The position numbers and the translations under genes were made by a program. DNA of 64,000 nt from a virus (lineage: Duplodnaviria > Caudoviricetes). Each line of letters begins with the position of its first letter. Position 1 is the stretch's first letter. The stretch lies in the IMG/VR virus record IMGVR_UViG_3300009161_000021; one strand, given 5' to 3'. Under the pieces are notes generated by a model that saw only the letters and a list, made by a program, of their open reading frames with translations, made no database searches and had not been told where the DNA came from. Shown in pieces: positions 15,187 through 37,303 of this stretch.

Positions 15187-15233
15187 GAAATTGCCTCCTT
15201 GAAGAAAACTATGATTTCTGCGCAATAAGTAAA

Positions 15234-17118: not shown

Positions 17119-17123
17119 GGCTT

Positions 17124-17152
17124 ATATTAAACCACGTACGACCACTTTTTAA
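17124..17152 (-). promoter_or_regulatory. Possible host sigma-70-type promoter upstream of glf
   Basis: TTAAAA-17 nt-TAATAT ending 5 nt before the ATG (would give a leaderless or near-leaderless mRNA). Confidence 0.35.
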
Positions 17153-17164
17153 GCTCCAGATCAG

Positions 17165-18043
17165 CTACTGCTTAAGATAGTCCTCTAGCACAACCTTCGG
17201 AGTCCAGCCGAGCTCCTCACGAGCTCGCATGTTGTTTGCTAGGGTCTCACGAGTCTCTCCGACTCTCTCAGCAACGTAGATACGGTCTCCTCCGATCATA
17301 ACGGCGAGATCATTGATAGAGTAGTTTCGACCCGTTCCGATGTTCACTGGACCAGTTACATTCAGCTTCTCTGCTGCTAACAAGTTCGCCTCAACAGCAT
17401 CGCTGATGTGTGTGAAATCCCGACGCTGCTTCCCGTCACCCACGATCGTCATCGGTTGTCCAGCTTCCTTCTGTCGTTTGAACAGGCCCATAACTGGTGC
17501 GTACTCACCCTTCAGAGGTTCACGAGGACCGTAGACATTGAAGTATCGCAGAGACACAGTCGAAAGACCGTACAACTTGGTGTAAAGATCGCAGACTTCT
17601 TCACCCTGCCATTTGGAAAGAGAATACGGGGTAGCGCAACCCTTTGGAGCATACTCAAGAAACGGTGGCAGCGATGCATGACCGTAGTAGGAAGATGAAG
17701 CTGAGTAAACAACTCTCTTCACGCCTGCTAACCTGCTGAGCTCCAGCACGCGCTGTGTTCCAAGAACATTGACAGAGAAACATTCCGAAGGATTGTTAAC
17801 GGTCGGTTGGATCCTGGATCGAGCAGCAAGATGAAACACAACGTCAACGCCATGATAAACGCTCTCGTCAAGATTGCGAATATCAGCGTTGATATTTGTC
17901 GCTGCATCATTCCAGTAGAATATCTGATTCTGAGGAGCAGACTTATCGTCAACGCAAATGACCTCATCACCGCGTGCGATTAGAGCATCAACCACATGGG
18001 AGCCGATGAATCCAGCTCCACCCGTTACAAGCGCTTTCATCAC
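17165..18043 (-). CDS. NAD-dependent epimerase/dehydratase (UDP-hexose 4-epimerase-like)
   Basis: TGGAGFIGSH, VFHLAA, SASSSYYG, YSLSK (YxxxK), LRYFNVYGP, RRDFTHI. Confidence 0.9.
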   Translation of the reverse strand: MMKALVTGGAGFIGSHVVDALIARGDEVICVDDKSAPQNQIFYWNDAATNINADIRNLDESVYHGVDVVFHLAARSRIQPTVNNPSECFSVNVLGTQRVLELSRLAGVKRVVYSASSSYYGHASLPPFLEYAPKGCATPYSLSKWQGEEVCDLYTKLYGLSTVSLRYFNVYGPREPLKGEYAPVMGLFKRQKEAGQPMTIVGDGKQRRDFTHISDAVEANLLAAEKLNVTGPVNIGTGRNYSINDLAVMIGGDRIYVAERVGETRETLANNMRAREELGWTPKVVLEDYLKQ

Positions 18044-19011
18044 TGCCTCCGCTTGCTGACTGCGCGACCGACCTGCTTCTCCCAGTCGCGATCATCAGGA
18101 CCACGAACCTCGAGATTCTTATCCCATGCAGCCTGCATAACAGTCGGATCAATGTCGTACTTACGAGCAACGCTCATGAGCGCGTTGATGTCTTTCGGGA
18201 AGCAGTGACCACCAAAACCTCGGACGTAACGACCATCATGCGTCGGGACGGGACCAGGAACGGACCAGTGCGTCTCACCGAGACGACGATCAACCTTGGC
18301 ATACTCGACCACCTTGTCGTAATCGATGTTGAGACCATCAGCATCAAGAGCCTCGCAAACCTGCGCGATCTCATTCGCAAACGAGACCTTCACTGCAAGC
18401 ATGCAGTTTGTCACGTACTTCACCATCTCCGCAGTGGTGGAGCTCGTCTTGATGATGGGAATCTTCGGAAACGCACGCTGGAATACGTTTCGGACGGTAT
18501 TGATATGCGGACGAGGTCCACCGAGAACAATTCGATTCTGCTCGCGCATGTCATTCACAGCGTTTGCCTCAGTCAGAAACTCGGGATTGAACACGACGTG
18601 GAGACCACGATCGTTGAACATCTTGTTCCAACACTCAGTCGAACCCGGTGGAACAGTTGACTTGATAACTGCAATTCGCTGAGGAGAGTCAGAGGAGTAC
18701 GGAGCCTCGCAAACAAGCTCAAGAACGTCCTCTACAATTGAGACGTCGGGAGAACCGTCCTCATACATAGGAGTTGGGACGCATAAGAAAAACACCCCCG
18801 AGAATCCAGACTTTCCTTCACACTGCTGAACAAACTCAGCGATAGATCCAGGGTAAAGAACTTTGGTCGAGTTGCTCTGCTTAAATCCGTTGATTCCGCC
18901 GGTTGCAAGCTTCCCAGCCTTGTCATACACGAAAACTGTCTCACCACGTTCGGAAAAAACGGTCGTAAGACTTCCACCGACAAATCCTTGACCAATTACG
19001 CCAATGCTCAT
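18040..19011 (-). CDS. UDP-glucose/GDP-mannose 6-dehydrogenase family protein (lacks the C-terminal domain)
   Basis: GQGFVG, LCVPTP, IKSTVPPG, FNPEFL, AEMVKYVTNCMLAVKVSFANE, GFGGHCFPKD. Confidence 0.88.
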   Translation of the reverse strand: MSIGVIGQGFVGGSLTTVFSERGETVFVYDKAGKLATGGINGFKQSNSTKVLYPGSIAEFVQQCEGKSGFSGVFFLCVPTPMYEDGSPDVSIVEDVLELVCEAPYSSDSPQRIAVIKSTVPPGSTECWNKMFNDRGLHVVFNPEFLTEANAVNDMREQNRIVLGGPRPHINTVRNVFQRAFPKIPIIKTSSTTAEMVKYVTNCMLAVKVSFANEIAQVCEALDADGLNIDYDKVVEYAKVDRRLGETHWSVPGPVPTHDGRYVRGFGGHCFPKDINALMSVARKYDIDPTVMQAAWDKNLEVRGPDDRDWEKQVGRAVSKRRQ

Positions 19012-20841: not shown

Positions 20842-21858
20842 TTACCTCACAATGAAATTTTCTTCGGAGGATACTCTATCTCTCCAATAGTTGAGCAGAT
20901 CATTCATAGTTTTCTCAAAACTGATCTGCGGCTCCCATCCAGTATGGCTCTTGAACTTACGTGTGTCAGGTATCTGGAGATCGGCGTCAATGGGTCGTAG
21001 CCTCTCAGGATCAACTTCAACTTTGATATCCTTTCGCGTTGAGATGCTAAGAAGATAATCAAGCGTCTGCCTTACCGTGCAAGTGTAAGAACCACCAATA
21101 TTATAGTACTCACCAGCGATCGGATCCTTAGTCACAAGAGTATGATAAGCCCTAACAGCGTCTCTTACGTCTGACCATGTTCTAAGAGAATCAAGGTTAC
21201 CAACTTTTAGAACAGGTGGAATCTTACCTGCCTCAATAAGAGCGATCTGCTTCGCAAATGATGACTCTGCAAAAACGTCACCACGACGAGGACCAGTATG
21301 AGTGAACATCCTTGTTGTCATAACCTTCATACCGTAGGCTTCAGCGTAGAATCTACCGATAAGATCAGTCCCAACTTTGGATATCGCGTAGGGAGAAGCA
21401 GGATGAAAATTAACATCCTCGTGAATCGGTAGCTTCTCAGCAGGAACTCTTCCAAACACCTCGGAGCTTGCGCAAACATGAATCACGGTATTTTCGAGAT
21501 TTGTCTTTGAAACTCTCACAGCTTCAAGCAACGCGCAAGTTCCCATGATGTTAGTCTGAAGCGTCTCCAGCGGAGAATCGAAACTCGTCTTCGGATAACT
21601 CTGGGCTGCCAGGTGAAAGATAAAGTCAGGTTGAACCTTATTCACAAGCGAGATCAAGCTTGCGAAATCATTCAGGTCGGCGTTATGAAGAAAGACACGA
21701 TCTCTCTCGTTGATCCTACTTGCAAGATGATCGATGTTTTTCGTGCTATCAGCCCATCTCGTCATTCCATGAACATCCCAGTCGGTGTTCTCGAGAAGAT
21801 GATCTGCCAGATGAGAACCGACCATGCCCGTTATTCCTGTAATCAATGCTCTTTTCAC
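20842..21858 (-). CDS. gmd: GDP-mannose 4,6-dehydratase
   Basis: ITGITGMVGSHL, FHLAAQSY, ASSEVFG, PASPYAISK, RMFTHTGPRR, VGNLDSLRTWSDVRD, RLRPID. Confidence 0.85.
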   Translation of the reverse strand: MKRALITGITGMVGSHLADHLLENTDWDVHGMTRWADSTKNIDHLASRINERDRVFLHNADLNDFASLISLVNKVQPDFIFHLAAQSYPKTSFDSPLETLQTNIMGTCALLEAVRVSKTNLENTVIHVCASSEVFGRVPAEKLPIHEDVNFHPASPYAISKVGTDLIGRFYAEAYGMKVMTTRMFTHTGPRRGDVFAESSFAKQIALIEAGKIPPVLKVGNLDSLRTWSDVRDAVRAYHTLVTKDPIAGEYYNIGGSYTCTVRQTLDYLLSISTRKDIKVEVDPERLRPIDADLQIPDTRKFKSHTGWEPQISFEKTMNDLLNYWRDRVSSEENFIVR

Positions 21859-21870
21859 GTTGTCTCCAGT

Positions 21871-22602
21871 TCAGACAATTTTAGATGAATTTGGTGAATC
21901 GTAACGATCGAGCAACTCTCTCTTGGCAGTCCATCCAGGCCAGAATGGATCTCCTTCGTTGATATAAACGAAATACATCGTTCGACGCCAGCGGGTCGGA
22001 TGCTGATTCTTATTCGCTTTGTGGATAAGATGACCGTGCACGCAGAGAACGTCTCCTTTCTCGTATTTTAGCTGAAGAACGGGGAGATCCTTTGGAATTT
22101 CACAGTTGTTTCCGATCGGAGCTGAATTATACAGCCTTCCTGATTCGTCAACAGAAAAGTTGGCTTTCGGATTACACGGCAGATCGCCCAGCTTGTGACT
22201 TCCAGGTATGATCATAAGAGAACCGTTCTCTTCGTCAGCGTCGTCAAGAGAAAGCGTTAAATTAAGGTAAGATCCGAACGGAGCTTTACCGGCGTAATTG
22301 TCCTGATGCCAGGTTGAACCGTTTTCCAAAGAGTTGTTAGGCTTGCAGAAGAAAAAGATGCTTCCTATTGGAATCGCTCGATTCTTTAAGATGCTATCTC
22401 CGATATCACACATCTTCTTACCGGTATGAATCTTGCTAAAGACTTCATTCTTGTGCATATCAAGATAGTTCGTGTAGAAACCATTTGCGTGTTTTTCTGA
22501 CGCATCGATGGCTTCCTGACACTCTTCATCTGAAAAGACCTTCTTCAAATGAAGGTAACCGTTTTCTTTAAAGAAGCTGATCTGTGAATCAGTGAGCTGC
22601 AT
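21871..22602 (-). CDS. PhyH-family Fe(II)/2-oxoglutarate dioxygenase
   Basis: FFKENGYL, TWHQDN (HxD), ENGSLMIIPGSH, GDVLCVHGHLIHKA..N...WRR. Confidence 0.88.
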   Translation of the reverse strand: MQLTDSQISFFKENGYLHLKKVFSDEECQEAIDASEKHANGFYTNYLDMHKNEVFSKIHTGKKMCDIGDSILKNRAIPIGSIFFFCKPNNSLENGSTWHQDNYAGKAPFGSYLNLTLSLDDADEENGSLMIIPGSHKLGDLPCNPKANFSVDESGRLYNSAPIGNNCEIPKDLPVLQLKYEKGDVLCVHGHLIHKANKNQHPTRWRRTMYFVYINEGDPFWPGWTAKRELLDRYDSPNSSKIV

Positions 22603-23567
22603 CAGCGTGCCACATTCTTCCTATACCACAGCAACGTTTTGATGATACCCTCATCAAGAGAATGAGACGGAGACCAGCCAAGTACTCTCTTAGCTTTAGA
22701 GCAATCGAGGAAAAGAGAGGTAGGTATCGTGGGCTGTGACAGATCGTGAACAATCTGAAGGTCTCGGCCTGAGTGATCGACAATCTTTCGAACGAGATCC
22801 TTTATCTTGATCCCTTCTCCCAAGCCAACGTTAAACAGCTCGAACTTGCTCTCCTGCTTGTCAATTGCATCATTGACAAATCCAACAAGATCTTCAACAA
22901 AAAGAAGATCCCGAGCTTCCTCGCCAGTCCCCCAAACGTTAATCTTGCCATCCGCAGACGTCATGACCTTGGTCACCGTTGCTCCAAACACATGTGACTT
23001 CTCAAGATCATACTTGTCATGAGGACCGTACATGTTGGAGTGACGAATGACGGTGTGCTTTGTCGACCCAATTCGTGAGTAAAACTCGCACATCTTCTCA
23101 AGATAAACTTTCGTGTTTCCTGCTCCGAAATAGAACGGAAGAATTTCGTCGGAAGGATTGAAGTCATCTTCCTTTATCGCAGTTTCAGACTTCTGATACA
23201 TGATAGTGCAGCTAGGGAACACAAAATGCTCGATCTTCTTCTCGAATGCTTCCCTAAGAAGAAGAGAGTTCATAACAGCGTTGTCTGTTACGTGTATGTA
23301 GGGCTTTGAGACGATGTCCCTCGCTCCCGTTGTGGTAGCTGCAAACTGCAGAACAATATCAACTCCAGACAGAGCGCTTGAAACGTGTTCAGGATTTCTT
23401 AGATCGCAGTTGATCCACTCGACCCCATCGTAACCTTCAACTGCAGGTCTGCGAAAGTGAGTGGCTCTTATGTTGTACTTTCCCTGCTTATAATAGAAAT
23501 CAAGCAGATTTCTTCCAATAAACCCAGTCGCGCCGCAAATCAGTATCTTCTTCTTATTTTCTACCAT
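22602..23567 (-). CDS. NAD(P)-dependent epimerase/reductase (GDP-L-fucose synthase / ColC-like)
   Basis: GATGFIG, RHSNMYGPHDKY...SHV, VWGTGEEARDLLFVED; YxxxK-type YFGAGNTK. Confidence 0.8.
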   Translation of the reverse strand: MVENKKKILICGATGFIGRNLLDFYYKQGKYNIRATHFRRPAVEGYDGVEWINCDLRNPEHVSSALSGVDIVLQFAATTTGARDIVSKPYIHVTDNAVMNSLLLREAFEKKIEHFVFPSCTIMYQKSETAIKEDDFNPSDEILPFYFGAGNTKVYLEKMCEFYSRIGSTKHTVIRHSNMYGPHDKYDLEKSHVFGATVTKVMTSADGKINVWGTGEEARDLLFVEDLVGFVNDAIDKQESKFELFNVGLGEGIKIKDLVRKIVDHSGRDLQIVHDLSQPTIPTSLFLDCSKAKRVLGWSPSHSLDEGIIKTLLWYRKNVAR

Positions 23568-24132
23568 CTAGAATGAGCTCCCGATCTCTTTTTACGAATG
23601 AATCATACACTCTGTCTATCACGAAGTTTATGTCCATTGCGTTTTGTCTGTCGGGAGTAGTTTTTATGTTTGTAGGGTAGACATCGAGAACGTTCAAATT
23701 GTTGTTCTCTGACTTTAAGCTTTGCGAAAATCCTCTTAAACCCCACTTGGTAGCTGAGTACAGGGTCCTATTAGCTTTGATCTCAAGCCCGACCATAGAG
23801 TTGATGTTAATCACGTCCGATAGGTTTGGAAGAAGCTCATATGTCAAGACTACCGGAGCCGTAAGATTAACGGCAATCATGCTCTGAATCTCTGAGAGAT
23901 TGTAATCTTCTAATTTCTTTCCTGGGCATGTGATTGCAGCGTTGTTTACAAGAATTTTGACTCCCTGCGAACGAGCTTCACGTGCTAAAGACTCGACCTC
24001 TTCTATTTTGGAGAGATCGAAATGCTTCCGTCCTTCATGACGAAAAACTTCATGACCCTCTCTTTCGAATTTTGAAGAAAGGTAAACTCCAAGACCTGAG
24101 CTAGCTCCGGTTATAAAAACTTTTGATTTCAT
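23554..24132 (-). CDS. Short-chain dehydrogenase/reductase
   Basis: ITGASSGLG, LVNNAA, ININSMVG, YSATKWGLRGF. Confidence 0.88.
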   Translation of the reverse strand: MKSKVFITGASSGLGVYLSSKFEREGHEVFRHEGRKHFDLSKIEEVESLAREARSQGVKILVNNAAITCPGKKLEDYNLSEIQSMIAVNLTAPVVLTYELLPNLSDVININSMVGLEIKANRTLYSATKWGLRGFSQSLKSENNNLNVLDVYPTNIKTTPDRQNAMDINFVIDRVYDSFVKRDRELILDGRK

Positions 24133-25034
24133 CTCATCAACTCTCTTATTGTTTTTTCGTGATATCCAAAATCTGAACCCGGTCTAAATTCAGCTTTTCT
24201 GATTCCATCACCCCGAAAAACTGGAACCCCATCGATCAACTTCCACTCAAAATCTCTAACAAGAATTAACCTGACATCTATCGATATCTTAGTTGTTAGA
24301 TCTCGTTGTGATCTGTGAGCTGCAGCGTGTATGCATCTCGAATCGAACATCAGAATCGAGTTGTAGATATCGGAAGCTTCGGATGCGTTCTTGTATCCAA
24401 GAGACATGAAGTTCTTATCTCCACTAAAGCAGATCGACTTCCAGATCTCTCTGTCAAACTCAAGCTCCGAAAACCATCTTTTTGATGACTCAAAATTCTG
24501 AACCCAGAAATCTGAACGATCATTGTCAGTAATGCCGAACCAGATATTATACTCTCTGGGGTTGTGACCCAGGAAGCAATCTGAGTGCCAGGCTGGTAAA
24601 CTAAGATTACCTTCCGCACCGGGAGCGTGAAATCTGACCGTTGGTATCTTCTGAAAGAAGAAATCTTCTTTTATCACTTCATCATGAATCCACTTCATGA
24701 ACTGATGATATAGGTTCTCTTGCTCTGCAATAAAATCGAACACGATGTCGGCGATTATAGGACGTGAGTTGTTGTTTTGCCCCACGGTCTGATATTCAAG
24801 ATACTTTTGTTCAATCGTAGAATGTAATTGCCTGAGATCAGAATCAGATGACTCGCAGATTCCTTTGCTAACAAGAAATTTAGCAAGTTCATCGTGGAAT
24901 ATCTTGTTCCAGTGCTTGCTTTTAGAAGTTTGAACGTAAGCTATGTCACTTCCGAAAGTCTTTTGAAAGCTGCTTGTCTTGTCGTACTCGCTCTCTAAAA
25001 ACTCTCTTAGCTTAAGACTTGTTGAGCTTTCCAT
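24129..25034 (-). CDS. StrG-like putative Fe(II)/2OG oxygenase
   Basis: FFFQKIPTVRFHAP, WHSDCFLGH, YNIWFGIT, FDSRCIHAA, ISIDVRL: HxD...H...R double-stranded beta-helix pattern. Confidence 0.6.
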   Translation of the reverse strand: MESSTSLKLREFLESEYDKTSSFQKTFGSDIAYVQTSKSKHWNKIFHDELAKFLVSKGICESSDSDLRQLHSTIEQKYLEYQTVGQNNNSRPIIADIVFDFIAEQENLYHQFMKWIHDEVIKEDFFFQKIPTVRFHAPGAEGNLSLPAWHSDCFLGHNPREYNIWFGITDNDRSDFWVQNFESSKRWFSELEFDREIWKSICFSGDKNFMSLGYKNASEASDIYNSILMFDSRCIHAAAHRSQRDLTTKISIDVRLILVRDFEWKLIDGVPVFRGDGIRKAEFRPGSDFGYHEKTIRELMR

Positions 25035-25898
25035 TTACTCATTCTTCCATCGAACTTTTTCGATTTCTCTAACTTCGCACATGATGTCAGAGTAATGATA
25101 GAAAATATCGTCAGCTACTTTCTTCGCGACAGGTTCAATCATAGAAAAGTTCTCATCAACTGCCCATTTCTTAAAGAACTGGTCACGATTGAGACCGTTG
25201 ACAGTAACTTTCAGAGCGTTCTTGTTGTCAATTAGGTCTTCGTATCTAACTTTTGCTTGAAGAAGTCTAGAGTACCCAAATCTCACGCTAAGGATATGGG
25301 CAAGAGCAGCGCAAAGGAAAACAATATCTGCGCCCTTGTAATCATCATCAAAAAAATCTCGGATTGCCATCCACCATTTCTTAGTGCAGATGGGCAGCAT
25401 TTCATGATAATGATAAATGAGACGAGCTGGATCTCTCAAAATTGGCTTGTTTGCGCCGTTGAACGGGTCCCAAGCGGTCCTGAACTGTGATGTCAAAGCA
25501 TTAAGATTTCTTCCGAGCGGGTTTGTGGTGTGCAACATGAAGATTGCATCGTCAAACGCATCTTTCTTTTTTAGAATTTCAGAGTCCCAATTTCTTGAAA
25601 GTCCCCAAAAATCGTCAGTGACCGCCCAGACAAAGTAGTAATCATTTGACTCGATGAAGTCAAAGAAAGCTCTCATCATGAACGGAGAGTTCGGTCCTGC
25701 GTGTGGTGGATTCACGCAGACCACGTTCGAATATCTTGAGACTACCGATGAATAGAGATCTATCTGATCATCATCAATTAAAGCGAAAATGTCAAAGTTG
25801 TTGATAGAGCTGCAAGTCTCTATCAACATATCAACTGTTTTACCGAAAGATTCAGGGTTGCTCCTGGTCGGAATATAAACAGCTATATCCTTTGACAT
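25035..25898 (-). CDS. GT-A fold (GT2-like) glycosyltransferase
   Basis: AVYIPTRS, FALIDDD, VWAVTDDF; similar to the ORF at 32203-32937. Confidence 0.6.
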   Translation of the reverse strand: MSKDIAVYIPTRSNPESFGKTVDMLIETCSSINNFDIFALIDDDQIDLYSSVVSRYSNVVCVNPPHAGPNSPFMMRAFFDFIESNDYYFVWAVTDDFWGLSRNWDSEILKKKDAFDDAIFMLHTTNPLGRNLNALTSQFRTAWDPFNGANKPILRDPARLIYHYHEMLPICTKKWWMAIRDFFDDDYKGADIVFLCAALAHILSVRFGYSRLLQAKVRYEDLIDNKNALKVTVNGLNRDQFFKKWAVDENFSMIEPVAKKVADDIFYHYSDIMCEVREIEKVRWKNE

Positions 25899-25902
25899 AA
25901 AG

Positions 25903-26871
25903 TCACTTTCTCATTGACTTGAAAGCGTCAACGCTGCTATTGGCAACATTCTGATTCTTGACGTACCATTCGACCGTTTCTTTAATTCCATCTTCGATTG
26001 AGATCTTTGGAAAGAATCCAAGAGAATGAGCTCTAGTCATGTCAAAAACTCGACGAGCATCACCGGTCGGCTTTGTTGTGTCCCAGACAACTTCAACGCC
26101 AGCGATATTAGCGACAGCATCAGCAACCTGCTTTATTGTCACTCCGTCGCCAGACCCAAGGTTGACAGGCTGAGTTATCTTATTCTCGACAACAAAAAGC
26201 ATTCCCTCTGCAACGTCTCGAGCGTGAATGAAGTCTCTAACGGCCGAACCGTCTCCCCACACTTCCATCTTGTCACCCGAAAATGCCTTCCTGATCAGCG
26301 AAGGAACAACCATCGAGCTGTCAGGGTCAAAGTTGTCGTAAGGACCGTAGACGTTAGCAGGACGAACGATGCTGCACTTTCCTGCTCCGTACTGCTTCTC
26401 GTAAGCCTGACACTGAAGCTCTCCCATCCTCTTTGCCCAACCGCCGAACCAATCATTTCTAGACGGTTGAGTCTGCCAAACGTCGTCCTCACGAAGTACC
26501 TCTGCGGGCTGATACACGCCGACGGTGCTAGTGTACAGGTACCAGTCAACTCCTTCATTCATCGCAGCTTCAAGCATATTCGTGTTGAACTGCATCATAG
26601 GGCCCATGATATCAGCAGGTCTCTCTAAACAAACTTTTGGAGAGCACTTGATACCAACAAGATTGAAGACGTAGTTCATGCCCTTAACGATTTTCTTGCA
26701 ATCAGAAAAATCTCGAAGATCCGCTCTAACAAACTCGATGTTGCTCATATCGACCGGGTCCTTGATATCAGCAACCCTTACTTTCGCACCACGCTTCTGA
26801 AGGAGTGAGACAAGCTCTCTCCCAATCATGCCGCTACCACCAGTCACCAGTACATTCTTGTTCTCAAACAT
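25903..26871 (-). CDS. NAD-dependent epimerase (GDP-sugar epimerase/reductase-like)
   Basis: TGGSGMIG, FGGWAKRMGE, VRPANVYGPYDNFD, VWGDGSAVRDFIH, NLGSG. Confidence 0.85.
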   Translation of the reverse strand: MFENKNVLVTGGSGMIGRELVSLLQKRGAKVRVADIKDPVDMSNIEFVRADLRDFSDCKKIVKGMNYVFNLVGIKCSPKVCLERPADIMGPMMQFNTNMLEAAMNEGVDWYLYTSTVGVYQPAEVLREDDVWQTQPSRNDWFGGWAKRMGELQCQAYEKQYGAGKCSIVRPANVYGPYDNFDPDSSMVVPSLIRKAFSGDKMEVWGDGSAVRDFIHARDVAEGMLFVVENKITQPVNLGSGDGVTIKQVADAVANIAGVEVVWDTTKPTGDARRVFDMTRAHSLGFFPKISIEDGIKETVEWYVKNQNVANSSVDAFKSMRK

Positions 26872-28042
26872 TAGAGATCCTCTTGTTTAAAGCTTCACAA
26901 AGCGTCTTGACCCTGCTTGGGTTGACTTCACAGTGATTTCCGATGTATAAACCGAAATCATGGATGTGATCAACATTTTCCATGGGTCCTTCGATCCTAT
27001 GAGAATAATTCTCAAGATACGGTTGACGAGCTTGATTACCGCCGCCTGCCGTTCCTTTTCGATATTCTACTCCAAGAGACTCTAGAGTTCTGCAGATAGC
27101 GTGGAATTTTTCGCTGCTTTTTTCTCTAAGAATCAAAGGAAGAGAAAAATTGCTGCTGCCGGATCTATCAAAATCTGTGAAGAAATGATCCGAATCCAGA
27201 TTGTCAAGCCAAGCATTTAAGTTCTCTGTCCTTGCTTGAATCGCATCATCCAGTCTCTCCAGCTGCTCGAGACCGATTACTGCATTGATCTCAGTTCCTC
27301 TCATGTTGAATCCTGGAACTGCAAAGGTGAAGAGTGGATTTAAGCTGGGGTACTTCTGGGAAAAATGAGACTTTATCTCCTCACTAGAATCTCTTATCAT
27401 CCCGTGGGATCGATAAAGCTTGGCCAGATGATAGAGCTCAGTGTTGTCCGTGCAAATCATCCCCCCCTCTATCGTAGTCATGTGATGACCAAAATAGAAA
27501 GAGAAGTTTGACATATCACCAATTGTTCCGACCTTTCTTTCATTAAAAGTCGCGCCGTGTGACTCACAGCAATCCTCGATAAGCATCAAGTTATGCTCTT
27601 TAGCAATTTCTACGATCTTTTCATTGATGCCGTTGAAACCAAGGGTGTGAACGAGAACAATCGCGCGCGTCTTGTCAGTTATTGCAGCTCTTATTCCATC
27701 CTCAGTAATTGCCATATTCTCCATAGAGACATCGACAAAAACAGGAGTCATTCCGAAATTAACAACCGGCGCAATGTCAGAGACCCATCCAAGAGGCGGA
27801 ACGATAATTTCTCCGTTACCGCACTTATCTCGAATGATGGCAGTCATGATGTAGTTGGCAGAAGCTCCTGAGTTAACAAAAACGCTATGCTTCACGCCGA
27901 GCCACTTCGACCACTTGATCTCGAACTCTTCTACTTTTGCTCCCTGGGTAAGGCGAACATTTGGCTCTGAAAGAAACTTGATCAATGCGAGCTTGTCAGC
28001 TTCAGTCACGTTATCGTTGATCAACGGCCAAGAGTAATTCAT
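26864..28042 (-). CDS. PLP-dependent DegT/DnrJ-family enzyme, ColD-type GDP-4-keto-6-deoxymannose 3-dehydratase
   Basis: VFVNSGASAN, EDCCESHGA, SFYFGHHMTTIEGG (His in place of the Schiff-base Lys), RSHG, GFNMRGTEINAVIG; 392 aa without the RfbH Fe-S Cys insert. Confidence 0.78.
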   Translation of the reverse strand: MNYSWPLINDNVTEADKLALIKFLSEPNVRLTQGAKVEEFEIKWSKWLGVKHSVFVNSGASANYIMTAIIRDKCGNGEIIVPPLGWVSDIAPVVNFGMTPVFVDVSMENMAITEDGIRAAITDKTRAIVLVHTLGFNGINEKIVEIAKEHNLMLIEDCCESHGATFNERKVGTIGDMSNFSFYFGHHMTTIEGGMICTDNTELYHLAKLYRSHGMIRDSSEEIKSHFSQKYPSLNPLFTFAVPGFNMRGTEINAVIGLEQLERLDDAIQARTENLNAWLDNLDSDHFFTDFDRSGSSNFSLPLILREKSSEKFHAICRTLESLGVEYRKGTAGGGNQARQPYLENYSHRIEGPMENVDHIHDFGLYIGNHCEVNPSRVKTLCEALNKRISNV

Positions 28043-28524
28043 TATTTGTCCCTCAACTGTAGTATTGGATTTTCGCTAGGCCAATCTATCGCTATTCTAC
28101 TGTCGTTCCATCTTAAAGTGAATTGATCTGCAACGTCAGGGTACTTTCCTTCATATGACCACTTGTAATAGAAAACAGATTGCTCGCTTAGAGTGTAGAA
28201 GCCGTTTCCGAATCTGGGAGGAACGAGAACCATTCTCTTGTTGTGCTCAGAAAGTATTGTCCAATCCCATTGCAAATATGTTTCTGATTCGGGTCGATTG
28301 TCAACAACCACAAAATAGACTTCTCCGTGAAGACAAGTTATCAGCTTCGTTGATTTATTGTCTCCATGAATTCCACGAAGAACATTCTTTCTAGAAGAAG
28401 AGACTTTGTCATGATTGAAGTTAACCCCAGGACAAGTCTCTCCTTGCTTCCACAGTGTCCACAAATCGCCTCTGTAATCAGAATGAAAATCAGGATTTAT
28501 TACCTTGACTTCTTTGAACTTCAT
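28042..28524 (-). CDS. rmlC: dTDP-4-dehydrorhamnose 3,5-epimerase family protein
   Basis: SDYRG, SRKNVLRGIHGD, KLITCLHGEVYFVVVDNRPES, LVPPRFGNGF, YKWS. Confidence 0.88.
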   Translation of the reverse strand: MKFKEVKVINPDFHSDYRGDLWTLWKQGETCPGVNFNHDKVSSSRKNVLRGIHGDNKSTKLITCLHGEVYFVVVDNRPESETYLQWDWTILSEHNKRMVLVPPRFGNGFYTLSEQSVFYYKWSYEGKYPDVADQFTLRWNDSRIAIDWPSENPILQLRDK

Positions 28525-29426
28525 GATCTCAGAACCGAAAGAGACTTCTCAACAATTCTTTCACAATTCGGAGGAAATACGTCAACGTCCGGGTGGAAAC
28601 CTGCTGTTCTGTTCTCAATGCAAAGAGTGTGAACATCTTTCTTTGAGCTTAACATTAGCTGATGCGCGAGGCTTGAAGCCACCCCCTGCTCATAGTCATC
28701 ATCAAGAACTATCCCACCATACTTTGATCGTAGCAAAGCTTCAATTGACTTTTCCTTTGAGGAAAAGGGCTTAATCCACATCTGGTGGACAATATTCACT
28801 TTGTAGCCCAATTTCTCAAGAGCAGCTCTAGCTTCTTCAGCTGCGAATCGAGTGACTGAAATTGGGAGAAGCGTAATGTCTGCATCCTCATGAATGAAAT
28901 CTTCCAGCTCTCGAGTGTTGTCATAACTCTTTCTATGCTCGGAAACGTAATAAGGAACATCATCATTCATGAAGCTCTCATACACGCTCTCGTACTCATT
29001 CGGAGTCATAGGAGCAGCGATCTTAAGACCAGGCATCCTATCATACAGAGAATGATGGGAAGAACCAGCTACGGGTCCGACTCCACCTTCCATGGCGATG
29101 CTTCTTACGAAGATTGGGCAAGGAATTCCCCAAATATCGTTTGACTTTGCAGCGTAGTTGATAATAGACGGAGCGTTGTACCACTGAAAGCCTTGATATC
29201 GAACAACGTAGATCGGTCTTTCTCCAGCTAATGCGATTCCTGTGGCTATCGCTCCGCCAGCAACATCGGCCATAGAAAACTCGACCATTCCGTCTTCTTC
29301 ATAAAGCTCAGGCAAAGTTCCACCCACCCAACCAACTGCAGTGAGGCACTGCCCGAAGCATCTACCACCCTTCTCAAGGTGTGAACGAGTCAAGCTCTTT
29401 ATCGTCTCTCTAACCGTTCTTGCCAT
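28521..29426 (-). CDS. ThDP-dependent enzyme, E1-beta/transketolase C-terminal-like subunit
   Basis: EFSMADVA..IATGIALAGERP, AGSSH, PGLKIAAPMTP, YVSEHR. Confidence 0.8.
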   Translation of the reverse strand: MARTVRETIKSLTRSHLEKGGRCFGQCLTAVGWVGGTLPELYEEDGMVEFSMADVAGGAIATGIALAGERPIYVVRYQGFQWYNAPSIINYAAKSNDIWGIPCPIFVRSIAMEGGVGPVAGSSHHSLYDRMPGLKIAAPMTPNEYESVYESFMNDDVPYYVSEHRKSYDNTRELEDFIHEDADITLLPISVTRFAAEEARAALEKLGYKVNIVHQMWIKPFSSKEKSIEALLRSKYGGIVLDDDYEQGVASSLAHQLMLSSKKDVHTLCIENRTAGFHPDVDVFPPNCERIVEKSLSVLRS

Positions 29427-30232
29427 ATTTTTTCAACCCTTTGCTTGGTCTGTTGATCAATCTCTCTTGCAGAGTCACCGATAATTGACATTTCATTTTC
29501 GTATCTATCGAAAATGCTATCATCGTCAATTCCAGCGCCAGCATGCCAGAACTTTCTGTGAGTATTCACGTTTAAAAGCATTGGACCATCAAACGCTCCT
29601 TCCAATGCATCTTTAATTGTCATCGGATCATCGTCAATGTTCATGCCTTTCATGCCAAAAGACATGGCAACATCGTGCATTTCCCATGACCTTCTAATCT
29701 TTTTCTCAGTGAGAATTGAGAGATTGTTGTCTTCAACGATGAAAAGAATTGGAAGCTTCTTAGTTGCAGCCCAGCCAAGAGCTCCAAGAGCGTAGTCTTC
29801 CTCGGCAGATGCATCTCCCATGAAAACAACGGTGGGGTTCTTCGTTGAATAGCAGTGACCCACCGCTATTGGAACCTGGCTTCCCATCAGACCGTCATGT
29901 CCGAATATCTTCTTTTCTCTGGATTGTATGGAGGCTGAGCCTCCCATCCCATTAGAACAACCAGTCTTAAGACCCAAGAGCTCATCCGCCAGTTGCTCAA
30001 TTGGAGCGTCAAAAGACAGATACGTTGAATGACCACGGTGCTGTATGAATATGTTGGGTTCGATTCTCTTTTGAGAGAGAACCTCGGACAATGTTGAAGC
30101 AGTGTATTCCTGCCCAGCTGACAGATAAATTGGAAATTTGAAAGTCCCTGCTCGGATTAAGTCAAAAACTTTCTTCTCAAAATTTCTGCAGAGAGAAGCT
30201 CTTCTAAATACGTTCAGTCTAAAATCACTCAT
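29399..30232 (-). CDS. ThDP-dependent enzyme, E1-alpha-like subunit
   Basis: YLSAGQE, HRGH, GCSNGMGGS, FMGDASAEE...LFIVEDN (GDG..N ThDP motif), HAG. Confidence 0.85.
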   Translation of the reverse strand: MSDFRLNVFRRASLCRNFEKKVFDLIRAGTFKFPIYLSAGQEYTASTLSEVLSQKRIEPNIFIQHRGHSTYLSFDAPIEQLADELLGLKTGCSNGMGGSASIQSREKKIFGHDGLMGSQVPIAVGHCYSTKNPTVVFMGDASAEEDYALGALGWAATKKLPILFIVEDNNLSILTEKKIRRSWEMHDVAMSFGMKGMNIDDDPMTIKDALEGAFDGPMLLNVNTHRKFWHAGAGIDDDSIFDRYENEMSIIGDSAREIDQQTKQRVEKIWQERLERR

Positions 30233-30617: not shown

Positions 30618-31282
30618 TACTCACCTTCGTGAGTCAATACTATTGTTCCTTCTTCGATTTTATCAAACACTTCAAGCAAACGATGAAGCACATTGCTCGA
30701 GACAATGTCACCAGGACTGGCCACTGCGACTCCGTACTCGGTCAAAAGACCACCCTTCAAGAACATTACATTTGACGAACTTGAGGCTTCTTTAAGATCA
30801 TCAATTGTTTTTATTCCAAGAACTTTGATCACTTGCCCATCAAAGTTATAGATTTCGCTTTTTCCTGGTTCTGGCTCTTTTATCCAAAGACACTCTGACT
30901 CTTTGGGGTACTCGTATGACTCGTCCTCGTAAGGCTGGCCGGTTCTGCCGTAACTGTCACGGAGCCTTACGAGATCATGCTTGTCAACAGGTGTCTCAAT
31001 CTCAAAGAGAGATAGATGTCCATGATGAGCTCTTGTCGAGTGGAAAAGACCCTTGCGAATCATGATCTTTTCAGAATTTGAGAGTTTAACGGAGTCAGCT
31101 AAAAATGATACTTCGGCTTGACCAGCGACGACCATCAGCCCCGTCGTCTTGTTCGGATGACAGTGCATGGAAGTTTGCTGGTCACGAAGAATCTTTAAAA
31201 ACCATAGAGCTACTTTATCGTTCTCATATGCGAGATACTCGTAGCCCCATGGCTTCTTAACTACGTTACTCTTGTAATTCAT
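30617..31282 (-). CDS. Cupin-domain protein (sugar isomerase-like)
   Basis: VKKPWGYEY, TSMHCHPNK, GLFHST, EIETP...DLVRLRDSYGR. Confidence 0.75.
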   Translation of the reverse strand: MNYKSNVVKKPWGYEYLAYENDKVALWFLKILRDQQTSMHCHPNKTTGLMVVAGQAEVSFLADSVKLSNSEKIMIRKGLFHSTRAHHGHLSLFEIETPVDKHDLVRLRDSYGRTGQPYEDESYEYPKESECLWIKEPEPGKSEIYNFDGQVIKVLGIKTIDDLKEASSSSNVMFLKGGLLTEYGVAVASPGDIVSSNVLHRLLEVFDKIEEGTIVLTHEGE

Positions 31283-31809
31283 TTGACTAGATCAATCGCT
31301 CGCTTCATCCAAGGTCCCATGTGCTTGTAATGAGGCGAAGTTACGATGTTATCGGAAACTACGGCTGCAGCATCGACATAACGAGCGCCAGCATTCTCAA
31401 TATCATCCTTGATGCTGTAGTAACCAGAGATGTCGCGGCCCTTAACGATCTTTGCAGAAATCAACAGCTGAGCACCGTGACAAATGCAGGCAATGACCTT
31501 GCCACGACGATTCCACTCAGCAATGAAATCGAGGACATTCTTCTCCTGACGAAGATACTCAAGTGCCTTGACACCGCCTGGAATAACGAGCATATCGTAC
31601 TCGAGCAACCGATCATGGATCTCTGGATTATCGAGATCCGTCGTTAGATGAGTTCCGTTCATGTAGGTCCCGAGGATTCCGTAGAAACGACCCCTCTTGT
31701 TTGACATAATCTCAACCTCATAATCGTCCTCAGTCAAACGATAATAAGGGTAGATGACCTCATGGTCCTGATAACCTTCGTGAGTTAGAAGAATAGCTTT
31801 CTTTGACAT
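31279..31809 (-). CDS. DJ-1/PfpI (type 1 glutamine amidotransferase-like) protein
   Basis: YQDHEVIYP, LVIPGG, ACICHGAQLL, VVSDNIVTS. Start refined to ATG 31809 (TAATG coupling). Confidence 0.88.
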   Translation of the reverse strand: MSKKAILLTHEGYQDHEVIYPYYRLTEDDYEVEIMSNKRGRFYGILGTYMNGTHLTTDLDNPEIHDRLLEYDMLVIPGGVKALEYLRQEKNVLDFIAEWNRRGKVIACICHGAQLLISAKIVKGRDISGYYSIKDDIENAGARYVDAAAVVSDNIVTSPHYKHMGPWMKRAIDLVK

Positions 31810-32210
31810 TACCAACTTACCTCCCAATCTTTGAAATCTGCAGCAAGACAATCAATCTTGTAATCCTTTCGACCACCCACAGCTTCCTGTATCTTGTTCT
31901 TCGCTGTGTTTCTGATCCCATTCAGTCCATGGGTCAGCTCAAGGTTATTGCCATCCTTGATGCCCTTTCGATAGTTAGACTCGTTATGCCAGATGTGAAG
32001 ATTCATCTGAGAAAGAACCACAATGGCTCTTACCGTGTCGGCGGTGATCTTACCATCGTTGCTGTCAAGGCACTCTTGGATATCATGACAGATGTCTCTG
32101 ATCTCCTGAGAGTATTCGTCCTTATGATCCGTGATGAAAACCTCTTTCAGCTGTGTGATAGAAAGACGATCTATCAGCTCAGCGAAAGTTGGCAAATACT
32201 TTCTACTCAT
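31809..32210 (-). CDS. Hypothetical helical protein (DUF4254-like)
   Basis: AELIDRLSITQLK, NLHIWHNE, NGIRN pattern recalled from DUF4254-type proteins of glycan loci. Confidence 0.45.
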   Translation of the reverse strand: MSRKYLPTFAELIDRLSITQLKEVFITDHKDEYSQEIRDICHDIQECLDSNDGKITADTVRAIVVLSQMNLHIWHNESNYRKGIKDGNNLELTHGLNGIRNTAKNKIQEAVGGRKDYKIDCLAADFKDWEVSW

Positions 32211-32937
32211 TGTTTTCCTCTATGAATTTGATCAATTTTAGACGATCTTCATTGCGTTTTGCAACAAGCTCAGGAGTATTGTAAAGAAAGTGCCCATTTT
32301 GTTTATCAGCCAAAGCTCTAGTCTTCAAATGAGTCTCATCCTTCTCCATTTTACCAGCTTCAACGTGCATGTGCTCTAGGAAAAGATGCTCTCTATTAGG
32401 TACGAAAATTCCTCGTCCTATCGAAACAGCGATTTCCTGATTCCACTTGTCGGTCCAGTCGGCAACAAAGTAGGGAGGATTAACGTACCCAAGAGCTTTG
32501 ACCCAGTTTCTGTGGACAAAAGTGTGAGAAGCAAGCTCTCCGTTCCACAGACCATCATCTGACCAAAGAAGAATTATCTTATCTTTGAAAAGACCAAAAG
32601 CTTCACGAGCGACAACATCCCAGTTCTGGGATCTGAAAACAACGTCATCGGCAACGTTCGCAACGATATCACCCTTTGCGATGGAGAAGCAAAGATTTGC
32701 AAAATTGCTCATCTTCTCGCCGGGCTCAAATAGCTTCACTGCTATTCTTTCGTCTCCAAATCGAAGCTTGAGTTCGTCAGCAACTTCAAGCGCAGCTGTG
32801 TCGTTGTTGTCGATTCCAAAAACAATTTCCATCATTGACGGATCAGAGCAATTCTTGAAAACAAACTCTGCAAAACGTCTCTGCAGCTCTGGTCTCTTGT
32901 GGGTCGGACAAAGAACACTAATAAACTCTTTACTCAT
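32203..32937 (-). CDS. GT2-like glycosyltransferase
   Basis: ISVLCPTHKRP, VFGIDNND, NVADDVVF, FVHRNWV..LG, FLEHMH. Confidence 0.75.
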   Translation of the reverse strand: MSKEFISVLCPTHKRPELQRRFAEFVFKNCSDPSMMEIVFGIDNNDTAALEVADELKLRFGDERIAVKLFEPGEKMSNFANLCFSIAKGDIVANVADDVVFRSQNWDVVAREAFGLFKDKIILLWSDDGLWNGELASHTFVHRNWVKALGYVNPPYFVADWTDKWNQEIAVSIGRGIFVPNREHLFLEHMHVEAGKMEKDETHLKTRALADKQNGHFLYNTPELVAKRNEDRLKLIKFIEENNE

Positions 32938-34699
32938 TCATCACGCTCTTGATTGTGTTATAGATCTGTTCGTCAGTGTTCCAGAAGCTCTTCTTGACAA
33001 TCTCAAAATTTTCTTTGATGTAATCCATACGAGAATAGTAATCATCTTCCGTCAGATTTTCGAGGATACTGTCAAGTTCTTCTAAAGAATTAAAGTGAAT
33101 GATTCCTCTTTCATTGAAATGTTCATTCACTTTCTGGCTGCCCCAGAAAATTGGAACTGTCCCAGTTATCATAGAATCCGCTATTTTTGCGAACCAAGTA
33201 TCCATCTTTACGTTCTCAATCACAATGGAGAACATGTAATCTTTTAGAGCATTAACAGCACCATGAACTGGGAATGGGTTATAACCGCTTCCCCAAAGAT
33301 CTATCCCGTGCTTTTCAGATAGCTTTTTTGCGATCTCATGACGAAGAGCGTGACCCTCCGTTATGATCTTGTTGCTTGCTATCATAGAAACTCTCTTGCT
33401 CTTATTATGAATTTTCCACTCTTCTTCTTTAATTCTAACGTGAGAGAGGGGCATGAGACGGCAATTTTTGTACTTGTCGATCAACCTCTGATCGAACGTG
33501 AAGACATAATCAAAGTCTTCAATCATTCCGATCAGATTCTGGTAAGCGAAACCATGAATTTCAGGAGGCTCCATGATCCAGGCTATCTTGGTCTTACAAT
33601 CGATAGAATTTACAAATTCTTTGTTAATGAAGTGATCTGTGAAAATTGTAATTCCAGAATAGTCTCTAAAGCTTTGATGATACGGTTGATATATGATCTT
33701 CTTTGTACGAGGGATAGGTTCTCCATTCGCAGAGACAAACCCGTAGTCCGGCAAGTTTACCGTATGGATAAAATGCTTGTCAAAAAGATTGACAATCATC
33801 GGTTGCTCTACCCCCGCGTAAGCAGGATCAGGCTTCTCGTACATCCTATAAAACTCTCGCCAGTTTGAGGGAGAAGCCTCATGCGGCGGCATGTATTTCG
33901 GATGAAAGCTGAATCCACCTAAATCATAGAAATGAGGAACAGGTTGAGGCCCTCCCCACATTCCCCACTGAAGCTGACTTTCTGTGTAAAATCCCTTCAT
34001 TAGCAGGTCAATTATTGCCTCAAATGACAGTCCAAGAACGTTCACTCTGCCTGGGCACTGCCTCGAGACCGAACCCTTATTGACCCATCTCGAGGGAACT
34101 TTTTCGAAAGTCGGGTCAGCGGTTCCATAAACTTCTTCTTTGAAAGTTGACGAAAGGTAGCTGCCGTCAATCTCAAAGTTCCATGGAGACCAATCATGCT
34201 CAAGGAACTTGAGCAGGTAATCTTTTCTCCACAGAGCTGGTTGAGTGCTGATTCTGTAGAGAGCTCCCTTGTCTATTGAGATTATACCGTATCCGTCCCT
34301 CATCTCAACGAGCTTATGGGAGCAGTAATTAAATGCATCGTAGCTAAGGCAAAATCTTCCGATGTTACTGTTATCTTTCATCTTTTCTACGATAACAGAG
34401 AACATCTGCTCATCAAGCGAGCAGCATGGGAAAAAATCATCCAGCGAGAAGATCAAAAATTCGTCAGTCACACTATTGACGTACTCAGCGATATATCTCG
34501 TCCACTTCTTAGATCCTCCCTCTTGCTTCGGAGCAATCGAGATGAACCTGTGATTTTCTGGAAGAGTGTAGCTTGGATGAGAGAACCCGATAAAATCGAT
34601 CTCATGACCAGGCCAGTACTTCTCGAACAGATAAGAGGTGACCCTTACGGCGTCTAGAGTTTCATCGCATAGCGGTATAATGTGCCTGATTTTTGTCAT
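32930..34699 (-). CDS. Two-domain glycosyltransferase: N-terminal GT-A-like plus C-terminal GT10 (fucosyltransferase-like)
   Basis: N-terminal LDDFF, YRISTQPALW, SPWNFEIDG; C-terminal WIMEPP, SMIASNK, YMFSIVIEN, GTVPIFWG. Confidence 0.7.
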   Translation of the reverse strand: MTKIRHIIPLCDETLDAVRVTSYLFEKYWPGHEIDFIGFSHPSYTLPENHRFISIAPKQEGGSKKWTRYIAEYVNSVTDEFLIFSLDDFFPCCSLDEQMFSVIVEKMKDNSNIGRFCLSYDAFNYCSHKLVEMRDGYGIISIDKGALYRISTQPALWRKDYLLKFLEHDWSPWNFEIDGSYLSSTFKEEVYGTADPTFEKVPSRWVNKGSVSRQCPGRVNVLGLSFEAIIDLLMKGFYTESQLQWGMWGGPQPVPHFYDLGGFSFHPKYMPPHEASPSNWREFYRMYEKPDPAYAGVEQPMIVNLFDKHFIHTVNLPDYGFVSANGEPIPRTKKIIYQPYHQSFRDYSGITIFTDHFINKEFVNSIDCKTKIAWIMEPPEIHGFAYQNLIGMIEDFDYVFTFDQRLIDKYKNCRLMPLSHVRIKEEEWKIHNKSKRVSMIASNKIITEGHALRHEIAKKLSEKHGIDLWGSGYNPFPVHGAVNALKDYMFSIVIENVKMDTWFAKIADSMITGTVPIFWGSQKVNEHFNERGIIHFNSLEELDSILENLTEDDYYSRMDYIKENFEIVKKSFWNTDEQIYNTIKSVMNE

Positions 34700-35553: not shown

Positions 35554-35631
35554 GCTTCTCCTTTGTTTGGATATTTTCATTCAACTCTACAACGACAAAG
35601 CTGGTTGTTCCGTTGTTTTGCTGATTATCTC

Positions 35632-36378: not shown

Positions 36379-36386
36379 GAACCGAG

Positions 36387-37298: not shown

Positions 37299-37303
37299 GA
37301 ACA

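Follow-up and report, generated by a model that had tools for sequence, protein, structure and literature searches.

We analysed a stretch of 64,000 nucleotides from a virus of the Caudoviricetes (IMG/VR record IMGVR_UViG_3300009161_000021), referred to below as the window, and in it the minus-strand genes at positions 20842-30232. On balance, this span appears to be the core of a phage nucleotide-sugar operon for a branched 3,6-dideoxy-heptose, in which the branch would be introduced by a pair of thiamine diphosphate (ThDP) subunits resembling the E1-alpha and E1-beta subunits of pyruvate dehydrogenase (PDH). This reading is based on the genes present, on their catalytic motifs and closest characterised relatives, and on the conserved neighbourhood; from these we infer a substrate, a carrier nucleotide, an order of steps, a branch and an acceptor. 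Each proposed step has a characterised precedent, either in the 3,6-dideoxy-heptoses of Campylobacter jejuni or in the E1-type C-branching of actinomycetes. What would be new is the combination, the predicted product and the carriers, namely giant phages of aquatic habitats and bacteria that count among the most abundant in water.

The original prediction had placed here a GDP-linked route from mannose to a sugar of the colitose or yersiniose kind. All genes that it named are real open reading frames (ORFs), co-oriented on the minus strand within 20842-30232 and recognised by Pfam and NCBIfam. Three more genes of the span were absent from it: those of a PhyH-family oxygenase, of an oxygenase-like protein of 301 amino acids (aa), and of a 287-aa GT-A glycosyltransferase. 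Neighbouring genes in the span overlap or are at most 12 nucleotides (nt) apart; the overlaps are 28 nt between E1-alpha and E1-beta, 4 nt between E1-beta and the epimerase, 1 nt between the epimerase and the ColD-type gene, and 8 nt between the latter and a GDP-fucose-synthase (GFS)-like gene. The span is therefore one translationally coupled unit.

Candidate enzymes of the pathway

A 3-deoxygenation of the ColD type, using histidine and no iron-sulfur (Fe-S) cluster, is a well-founded prediction. The pyridoxal phosphate (PLP) enzyme contains the motif SFYFGHHMTTIEGG, whose first histidine (His186) is aligned by HMMER with His188 of ColD (2GMS). At this position 3B8X has N and 2R0T has K, these being the H188N and H188K entries of ColD. 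His186 and His187 are both invariant in 62 homologues. With 392 aa the enzyme is like ColD (390 aa) and unlike the 3-dehydratase E1/RfbH (437 aa), and its alignment to ColD covers residues 28-375 of the latter with no large insert. Its score is 200 bits with ColD 2GMS and 168 bits with E1/RfbH, and the RfbH model gives 235 at a cut-off of 423. Thus both features first noticed in this protein, a histidine in place of the catalytic lysine and no Fe-S insert, are borne out, and the comparison of ColD with RfbH favours ColD.

The sugar scaffold is quite likely a heptose rather than mannose, because the dehydratase and the epimerase resemble heptose enzymes, genes for a heptose-type kinase, nucleotidyltransferase and phosphatase adjoin them, and the set matches that of C. 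jejuni HS:5/HS:11. The 338-aa dehydratase had been labelled Gmd. By full-length similarity and catalytic motifs it is instead a predicted GDP-heptose 4,6-dehydratase (DmhA/WcbK/7US5 type). It matches the C. jejuni GDP-heptose 4,6-dehydratase 7US5 over residues 2-330 at 363 bits (E = 1e-107) and Gmd at 162 bits, some 200 bits lower. The Gmd model TIGR01472 gives 193.6 bits, far below its cut-off of 415. The motifs S-S-E and Y-x-x-x-K are seen in the sequence. The label RmlC has to be abandoned in the same way. The rmlC model TIGR01221 gives the epimerase 107.8 at a cut-off of 155.75, and the C. jejuni GDP-heptose 3,5- and 3-epimerases match it at 162-177 bits. The top PDB matches are 8DB5/8DCO, a GDP-D-glycero-4-keto-D-lyxo-heptose 3,5-epimerase (177 bits), against 92 bits for the dTDP enzyme RmlC.

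The ThDP enzyme has E1 architecture divided between two chains, E1_dh in one and Transket_pyr/Transketolase_C in the other. The alpha subunit carries the diphosphate/Mg motif GDA-x26-NN and His230, both conserved in the family. Judged by equivalog cut-offs and by the lack of E2 and E3, the pair is apparently not the E1 of PDH. The alpha subunit has 110 bits with TIGR03182 (cut-off 394), the PDH E1 model NF006667 gives 52 (cut-off 321), and solved PDH E1 subunits match at 55 bits (alpha) and 48 bits (beta). No lipoyl-lysine, E2 or E3 signature motif was found in the six frames of the window, and the domains 2-oxoacid_dh (PF00198) and lipoyl (PF00364) are absent from five related phage records, two of them rated 100% complete. 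The earlier description of the pair as one without E2 and E3 thus holds, in the relatives as well. In the beta subunit Asp54 replaces the glutamate that activates ThDP. This replacement is seen in two independent alignments (to 3DUF_B and to a Rhizobium E1-beta), and Asp54 is invariant in 79 family members. Glu49 of the same subunit stands at the canonical Asp position, the motif being E-F-S-M-A-D versus D-T-P-I-x-E.

The pair had originally been related to YerE. However, YerE is a single-chain enzyme of the acetolactate-synthase (ALS)-like decarboxylase superfamily (PMC9306805), whereas the pair is of the PDH-E1 alpha/beta (alphaKADH2) type. An ALS-like (YerE-superfamily) ThDP gene was not found in the window; a true one occurs in SAR11 loci. 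By architecture, by the missing E2 and E3, and by the ketosugar gene setting, the right comparators are the alphaKADH2 enzymes of sugar C-branching. These E1 alpha/beta enzymes, among them AlmD (AlmDI/DII), AviB1/B2, Plm8/9 (= Pau11/12) and KbDH-alpha/beta, place a pyruvate-derived two-carbon unit on C3 or C4 of nucleoside diphosphate (NDP)-ketosugars, and KbDH-alpha/beta couples pyruvate with ketones in vitro (PMC12247030, PMC4802897, PMC4753412). The pair shares with them the two subunits, the lack of E2 and E3, the setting in an NDP-ketosugar pathway, and a separate ketoreductase that is available. On the other hand, the substrates of the known enzymes are dTDP/NDP deoxyhexoses or pentoses, and their setting is the secondary metabolism of Gram-positive bacteria (actinomycete antibiotics), whereas this pair is found in phages and in Gram-negative or streamlined aquatic bacteria, beside ColD-type and heptose enzymes. 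It is also short (277 + 301 aa), has Asp for the cofactor Glu, and is likened to them by architecture, not by sequence. Fused single-chain alpha-beta forms of the same or a neighbouring family were observed in the metagenome proteins P0128 (628 aa) and P0162 (619 aa) and in a metagenome-assembled genome (MAG) of Rickettsiales (L002, 6522-8591); the fused forms adjoin a split pair.

The span encodes three short-chain dehydrogenases/reductases (SDRs), of which only the 192-aa classical one has a fully canonical motif set (intact TGxxxGxG, NNAA and YxxxK). It is the best candidate for a ketoreductase. The GFS-like protein has E. coli GFS as its best solved relative. Relative to that enzyme S107 is replaced by T116, C109 by G118, Y136 by Gly/Ala and H179 by Met; Lys140 is kept. 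The family motif is [FY]-[GA]-G-W-A-K-R. Since Phe and Tyr interchange at its first position among close orthologues, this residue beside the Tyr136 position is not the catalytic tyrosine. Model NF047922 gives 165 at a cut-off of 500, and the GFS/ColC triad together with Cys109 and His179 is incomplete. The 321-aa extended SDR has an invariant Y-x-G-x4-K, with the tyrosine seven residues before the lysine where four is canonical, and weak GalE/GFS-like matches in PDB. Thus the two GFS-like reductases once proposed are GFS-like in fold, GFS is the best solved relative of one only, and the name reductase does not suit a protein that lacks equivalents of Tyr136, Cys109 and His179. A third extended-SDR paralogue, with Y-R-G-V-G-W-M-K, is found in related phages. 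A missing canonical C4 reductase would pose no problem for the pathway if the C4 ketone were consumed by formation of the C-C bond.

Two candidate 2-oxoglutarate (2OG) oxygenases lie among these genes. The PhyH-family protein matches PHYHD1 in PDB (40 bits) and, weakly, 4XAA, which we take to be an orthosomycin oxygenase and do not use as evidence. The 301-aa protein matches TIGR04324, "sporadic carbohydrate cluster 2OG-Fe(II) oxygenase", at E = 8e-6, below the cut-off, and has homologues in only three related loci. As summarised in reviews of avilamycin, the 2OG "hydroxylase" AviO2 works with the AviB1/B2 pair; the phage, too, has PhyH-type oxygenases.

The 287-aa protein models as a GT-A glycosyltransferase. 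Its AF2 model (mean confidence, pLDDT, 74) has as top Foldseek matches the GDP-fucose fucosyltransferase WrtF, RmlT and SpsA at E from about 1e-7 to 1e-6, and the sequence contains IDDDQ and DDF motifs. A further candidate transferase, for a GDP-L-sugar, is the 589-aa protein encoded outside the span, with a GT10 domain at residues 431-577 (38.4 bits with PF00852, cut-off 23.9). Enzymes of family GT10 use GDP-fucose as donor.

Conservation of the neighbourhood

We compared 95 related loci by tblastn, 69 from IMG/VR phage contigs and 26 from bacterial genomes (Pelagibacteraceae single-cell genomes, SAR116, OM43/Methylopumilus, Methylococcaceae, and MAGs of Rickettsiales and Marinimicrobia). A homologue was counted if it had at least 35% identity and at least 50% coverage and lay within 10 kb of the E1-alpha gene. 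E1-beta was found in 90 of the 95 loci, the 221-aa cupin and the DJ-1/PfpI protein in 76 each, and the His-type ColD in 72. The epimerase was present in 41, the GFS-like protein in 31, the 130-aa haloacid-dehalogenase (HAD) protein and the heptose-type dehydratase in 28 each, the PfkB kinase in 24, the 321-aa SDR in 22 and the short SDR in 17; a GT10-like ORF flanks the cassette in 15. The ColD-type gene is less than 100 nt from E1-beta in 20 loci, and the 130-aa HAD gene is conserved directly upstream of E1-alpha at 59-74% identity.

An independent recurrence of the pairing was found in an unrelated cluster on plasmid AZO_p6 of Azospirillum lipoferum 4B (L096, 36650-55399). A distant E1 pair (25-28% identity), again without E2 and E3, is directly followed there by a DegT enzyme with the motif S-H-H and 34% identity to that of the window. 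The surroundings comprise genes of a GT41 glycosyltransferase, HAD hydrolases, a methyltransferase, sulfotransferases and oxidoreductases. In Rhizobium, genes for E2 and E3 adjoin an E1 pair that is about equally distant. Action of the E2/E3-less pair on a 4-keto sugar is thus supported as a prediction, because of its pairing with ColD in the related loci and because of the recurrence in Azospirillum. As this bacterium is cultured, its locus could serve as a model in which the chemistry is tractable.

The nearest relatives of the cassette (L027-L029, E1-alpha identity 75-76%) have the gene order of the window minus the GT-A and 301-aa oxygenase genes. The minimal cassette (L065-L094) consists of cupin, B12-radical-SAM enzyme, DJ-1, E1-alpha, E1-beta, GHMP kinase, ColD and SDR. 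The best model for its kinase is HddA (126 bits, far under the cut-off), and in L068 the cassette adjoins a UvsW helicase gene.

The B12-binding radical SAM enzyme (about 506-512 aa) is encoded directly upstream of DJ-1/E1-alpha in L068 (7938-9458), L051 (6834-8372) and L012 (8467-9987); its best model is HpnJ-like, far under the cut-off. We considered an erwiniose-like octose formed by B12-radical-SAM methylation of a heptose and dropped it, since a long keto-acid donor accounts for erwiniose and the sugar island of the window contains no radical SAM gene.

In SAR11 loci an ALS-like ThDP enzyme and another split E1-like pair are present in addition. In the Pelagibacteraceae loci L012, L013, L024 and L026 up to three ThDP systems stand side by side, adjoining the His-type ColD and the epimerase: the ALS-like enzyme (566 aa), the second split pair (200 + 178 aa) and the E1 alpha/beta pair.

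The cassette is common among uncultured phages and SAR11-type water bacteria. There are 2534 database proteins homologous to E1-alpha at E <= 1e-10. At E <= 1e-30 the family comprises 61 clusters at the 50% identity level, and at the 90% level at least 120 clusters have at least 69% identity to the protein of the window. The GenBank phages contain no close E1-alpha homologue, a megablast search of the region against them gave no match, and ColD-like genes of about 39% identity occur in the GenBank Synechococcus phage ACG-2014f. The earlier statement that no such pathway had been described in a phage is therefore true of GenBank phages, but 69 IMG/VR phage contigs carry the E1 pair. In the literature, we found no paper describing the cassette in phages or in SAR11.

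Proposed pathway and its alternatives

The pathway would start from a heptose of the D-glycero-D-manno type, activated as an NDP-sugar and most likely as the GDP derivative. This could come from the host or be made with the PfkB kinase, the HAD phosphatase and the HldC-like nucleotidyltransferase encoded next to the span. The 4,6-dehydratase would form the 6-deoxy-4-keto-heptose, from which the ColD-type enzyme, using pyridoxamine phosphate (PMP) and glutamate as amino donor, would remove the C3 hydroxyl to give the 3,6-dideoxy-4-keto-heptose. The RmlC-fold enzyme may epimerise C5 and/or C3. The E1 pair would form hydroxyethyl-ThDP by decarboxylating pyruvate and add it to the C4 ketone, producing a tertiary alcohol with an acetyl branch at C4, and the short SDR would reduce this branch to 1-hydroxyethyl. 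Further tailoring may fall to the atypical extended SDRs and the 2OG oxygenases, two of each, and transfer of the sugar to the GT-A enzyme and/or the GT10-like protein.

More tentatively, the phage, its uncultured aquatic relatives and bacteria of the SAR11, SAR116 and OM43 types may all make an undescribed nine-carbon sugar, a 3,6-dideoxy-4-C-(1-hydroxyethyl or acetyl)-heptose, through a miniature Asp-for-Glu E1 carboligase, the phage using it to decorate the virion or to remodel the host surface. If so, it would be a new sugar in the glycan repertoire of bacteria and viruses. The E1 pair would be of interest for biocatalysis as a compact ThDP carboligase that accepts ketones, and the cassette would provide a handle on the glycosylation targets of large phages.

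Beside the alphaKADH2 branching enzymes, the closest known system is that of the GDP-3,6-dideoxy-heptoses of C. jejuni HS:5/HS:11 (Ghosh, Xiang and Raushel 2023, PMC10440746). These are made by a 4,6-dehydratase, a ColD-like C3-dehydratase, a C5-epimerase resembling RmlC and a C4-reductase. The window has all four enzyme types in one cluster; its dehydratase and epimerase have there their closest solved relatives, and the C3-dehydratase is again ColD-like with a histidine. However, the phage has HldA/HldC-like activation genes and no GmhA, whereas C. jejuni has HddA/HddC; its GFS-like "reductase" lacks the catalytic tyrosine; and it adds the E1 pair, the two 2OG oxygenases and extra SDRs.

Several observations weigh against the branched GDP-heptose. 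The GFS-like protein has no catalytic tyrosine, and the E1-beta subunit has Asp54 where every canonical E1 has Glu. The DJ-1/PfpI and metallo-cupin genes track the E1 pair more closely than ColD does. Some loci, L002 and L003 among them, carry the E1 pair with no ColD within 10 kb, and the pair might have a role in making a precursor. The other objections concern the carrier. The sole sugar nucleotidyltransferase that the window and two complete relatives encode has the HldC/cytidylyltransferase fold, neither a ManC/HddC-type enzyme nor GmhA was found in the window and related phages, and HldC-type enzymes, viral ones included, are reported to make ADP-, CDP- or UDP-beta-heptose and not GDP-alpha-heptose (PMC11573728).

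These last points bear on the alternative that survives best, although we consider it unlikely: the same chemistry on another carrier, with ADP-, CDP- or UDP-beta-D-heptose produced by HldA/HldC-like enzymes of the phage and with tailoring enzymes of shifted specificity. The genes of the kinase, the nucleotidyltransferase and the HAD phosphatase directly follow that of the dehydratase, with a 3-nt spacing or overlaps. The kinase has 136 bits with TIGR02198 (rfaE_dom_I, cut-off 345) and HldA 4E84 as its best PDB match (55 bits). The nucleotidyltransferase has 126 bits with TIGR02199 (rfaE_dom_II, cut-off 181.5), and in PDB it matches ethanolamine-phosphate cytidylyltransferase at 103 bits. Viral heptose nucleotidyltransferases making ADP-, CDP- or UDP-heptose have been reported (PMC11573728), which agrees with this alternative. 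However, four tailoring enzymes are nearest to GDP-sugar enzymes, two of them at very high scores, and some variants of the cassette hold an HddA-like kinase of the GDP-alpha-heptose route. The donor known for GT10 enzymes also speaks for GDP. GDP, the carrier proposed originally, fits the closest characterised relatives of these four enzymes and the GT10-like domain. Either the host would supply the GDP-sugar, or the phage enzymes would have other nucleotide specificities.

The 221-aa cupin as a substitute for GmhA is a lead only. The fold matches of its AF2 model (pLDDT 90) are generic cupins and bicupins, with phosphomannose isomerase at rank 36. His40, His42 and His81 are invariant, and in the Atlas the protein falls into virus-dominated clusters to which no function is attached.

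Less likely again is a hexose route from GDP-mannose, in which Gmd and ColD would be followed either by reduction to colitose or by a YerE-like branching and a YerF-like reduction to a GDP-yersiniose analogue. Among solved structures the PLP enzyme is indeed nearest to ColD, GDP-mannose is common in hosts, GmhA is missing from the phage relatives, the 221-aa cupin is weakly phosphomannose-isomerase-like, and a GT10-like domain is present. The likeness to the GDP-L-colitose pathway (Gmd, ColD, ColC) lies in the His-type 3-dehydratase without Fe-S and in closest relatives that use GDP. However, the dehydratase falls short of the Gmd cut-off and is nearer to the heptose enzyme, the epimerase resembles those for GDP-heptose, the dehydratase gene is bordered by genes of a heptose-type kinase and a nucleotidyltransferase, and the catalytic Tyr, Cys and His are all missing from the ColC/GFS-like protein. 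With the pathways of yersiniose A and of ErwE/MygE the proposed route has in common PMP-dependent 3-deoxygenation and ThDP-dependent alkylation at C4 followed by a branch reductase (PMC9306805). On the other hand, YerE/ErwE are single-chain flavo-ThDP enzymes, the sugar is a CDP-linked hexose (CDP-4-keto-3,6-dideoxyglucose, made by E1/E3, in the case of yersiniose A), and the Fe-S 3-dehydratase E1 needs E3 (PMC9306805); none of this holds here, and the ThDP enzyme lies outside the YerE superfamily. The colitose/yersiniose frame thus gives way to a more probable heptose one.

An unbranched 3,6-dideoxy- or 6-deoxy-heptose, with the E1 pair and the DJ-1/PfpI, cupin and HAD proteins making or reshaping a sugar-phosphate or keto-acid precursor by DXS/transketolase-like carboligation, agrees with the constancy of the DJ-1, cupin, (HAD), E1-alpha, E1-beta block (76 of the 95 loci), its occurrence without nearby ColD in L002 and L003, the missing GmhA, which the phosphomannose-isomerase-like cupin could replace, and the unusual Asp54, but is improbable, as the alpha subunit matches E1_dh and not the transketolase or DXS N-terminal families, the E2-less E1 recurs with a His-type DegT enzyme in an Azospirillum cluster that has no DJ-1 or cupin genes, sugar branching by E1-type enzymes has precedents from genetics and from in vitro work, and a route with no branch would be left with no obvious canonical C4 reductase, the GFS-like protein lacking its tyrosine.

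Phage setting and gene map

The window belongs to a large T4-like freshwater phage. Its ORFs lie almost throughout on the minus strand. Baseplate wedge, PhoH and DNA helicase are among the PHROG matches; the top GenBank relatives of the helicase belong to jumbo phages (about 30% identity). The stretch is present almost intact in freshwater metagenome runs, with at least 97% of the sampled words in four of them. The span 20842-30232 is enclosed in a minus-strand sugar island of about 12.8 to 37.3 kb (Table 1).

Table 1. Genes of the span 20842-30232 and of its flanks
Predicted product	Position	Strand	Basis
Small metallo-cupin, ~120-137 aa	19054-19467	-	PF07883
Small HAD phosphatase, 107 aa	19397-19720	-	TIGR01689 capsule biosynthesis phosphatase, E 6e-10
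HldC/cytidylyltransferase-fold nucleotidyltransferase, 147 aa	19701-20144	-	TIGR02199, PDB match
PfkB kinase, heptose-7-phosphate-kinase-like, 254 aa	20074-20838	-	TIGR02198, HldA
NDP-heptose-type 4,6-dehydratase, 338 aa	20842-21858	-	S-S-E and YxxxK; 7US5 match
PhyH-family 2OG/Fe(II) oxygenase, 243 aa	21871-22602	-	PF05721, E 7e-23
Extended SDR, 321 aa	22602-23567	-	PF01370
Short classical SDR, 192 aa	23554-24132	-	PF00106, E 6e-26
2OG-Fe(II)-oxygenase-like, accessory, 301 aa	24129-25034	-	TIGR04324, below cut-off
GT-A fold glycosyltransferase, 287 aa	25035-25898	-	AF2 model and Foldseek; no Pfam match
GFS-fold extended SDR, 322 aa	25903-26871	-	E. coli GFS, 133 bits
ColD-type PLP/PMP 3-dehydratase (DegT family), 392 aa	26864-28042	-	PF01041, E 1e-68
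RmlC-fold C3/C5 (or C5) epimerase, GDP-heptose type, 160 aa	28042-28524	-	8DB5/8DCO
E1-beta-like ThDP subunit, 301 aa	28521-29426	-	PF02779, PF02780
E1-alpha-like ThDP subunit, 277 aa	29399-30232	-	PF00676, E 1e-18; PF02775
Small HAD-like phosphatase, 130 aa	30225-30617	-	DxDG motif; PF06941, weak
Metallo-cupin, 221 aa	30617-31282	-	PF01050, E 6e-5 (phosphomannose-isomerase C-terminal domain, weak)
DJ-1/PfpI-family protein, 176 aa from ATG	31279-31809	-	PF01965, E 1e-35; Cys-His nucleophile elbow
133-aa protein	31809-32210	-	no Pfam match
589-aa protein with C-terminal GT10 (fucosyltransferase-like) domain	32930-34699	-	PF00852

The DJ-1/PfpI protein has 134.7 bits with TIGR01382, whose cut-off is 139. 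The listed ORF of this gene (31279-31851) opens with TTG; the ATG 14 codons downstream, at 31809, is the likelier start and abuts the stop codon of the gene upstream. That gene encodes the 133-aa protein, the most conserved one around the cassette, with 67-85% identity in 33 phage loci and no fixed position relative to the cassette. In the Atlas it falls into almost purely viral clusters that have no function attached; DUF6165 is a weak lead.

Among the ORFs scanned in the island, none was recognised as coding for a flippase, a polymerase or an export protein. Its outer parts (12788-19011 and 32203-37304, minus strand) also encode a UDP-galactopyranose mutase, a GalE-like epimerase, a PseB-like 4,6-dehydratase, a truncated UDP-glucose-dehydrogenase-like protein of 323 aa, two GT4 enzymes and two or three GT2 enzymes. 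A PD-(D/E)XK nuclease gene is wedged amid the sugar genes of the island.

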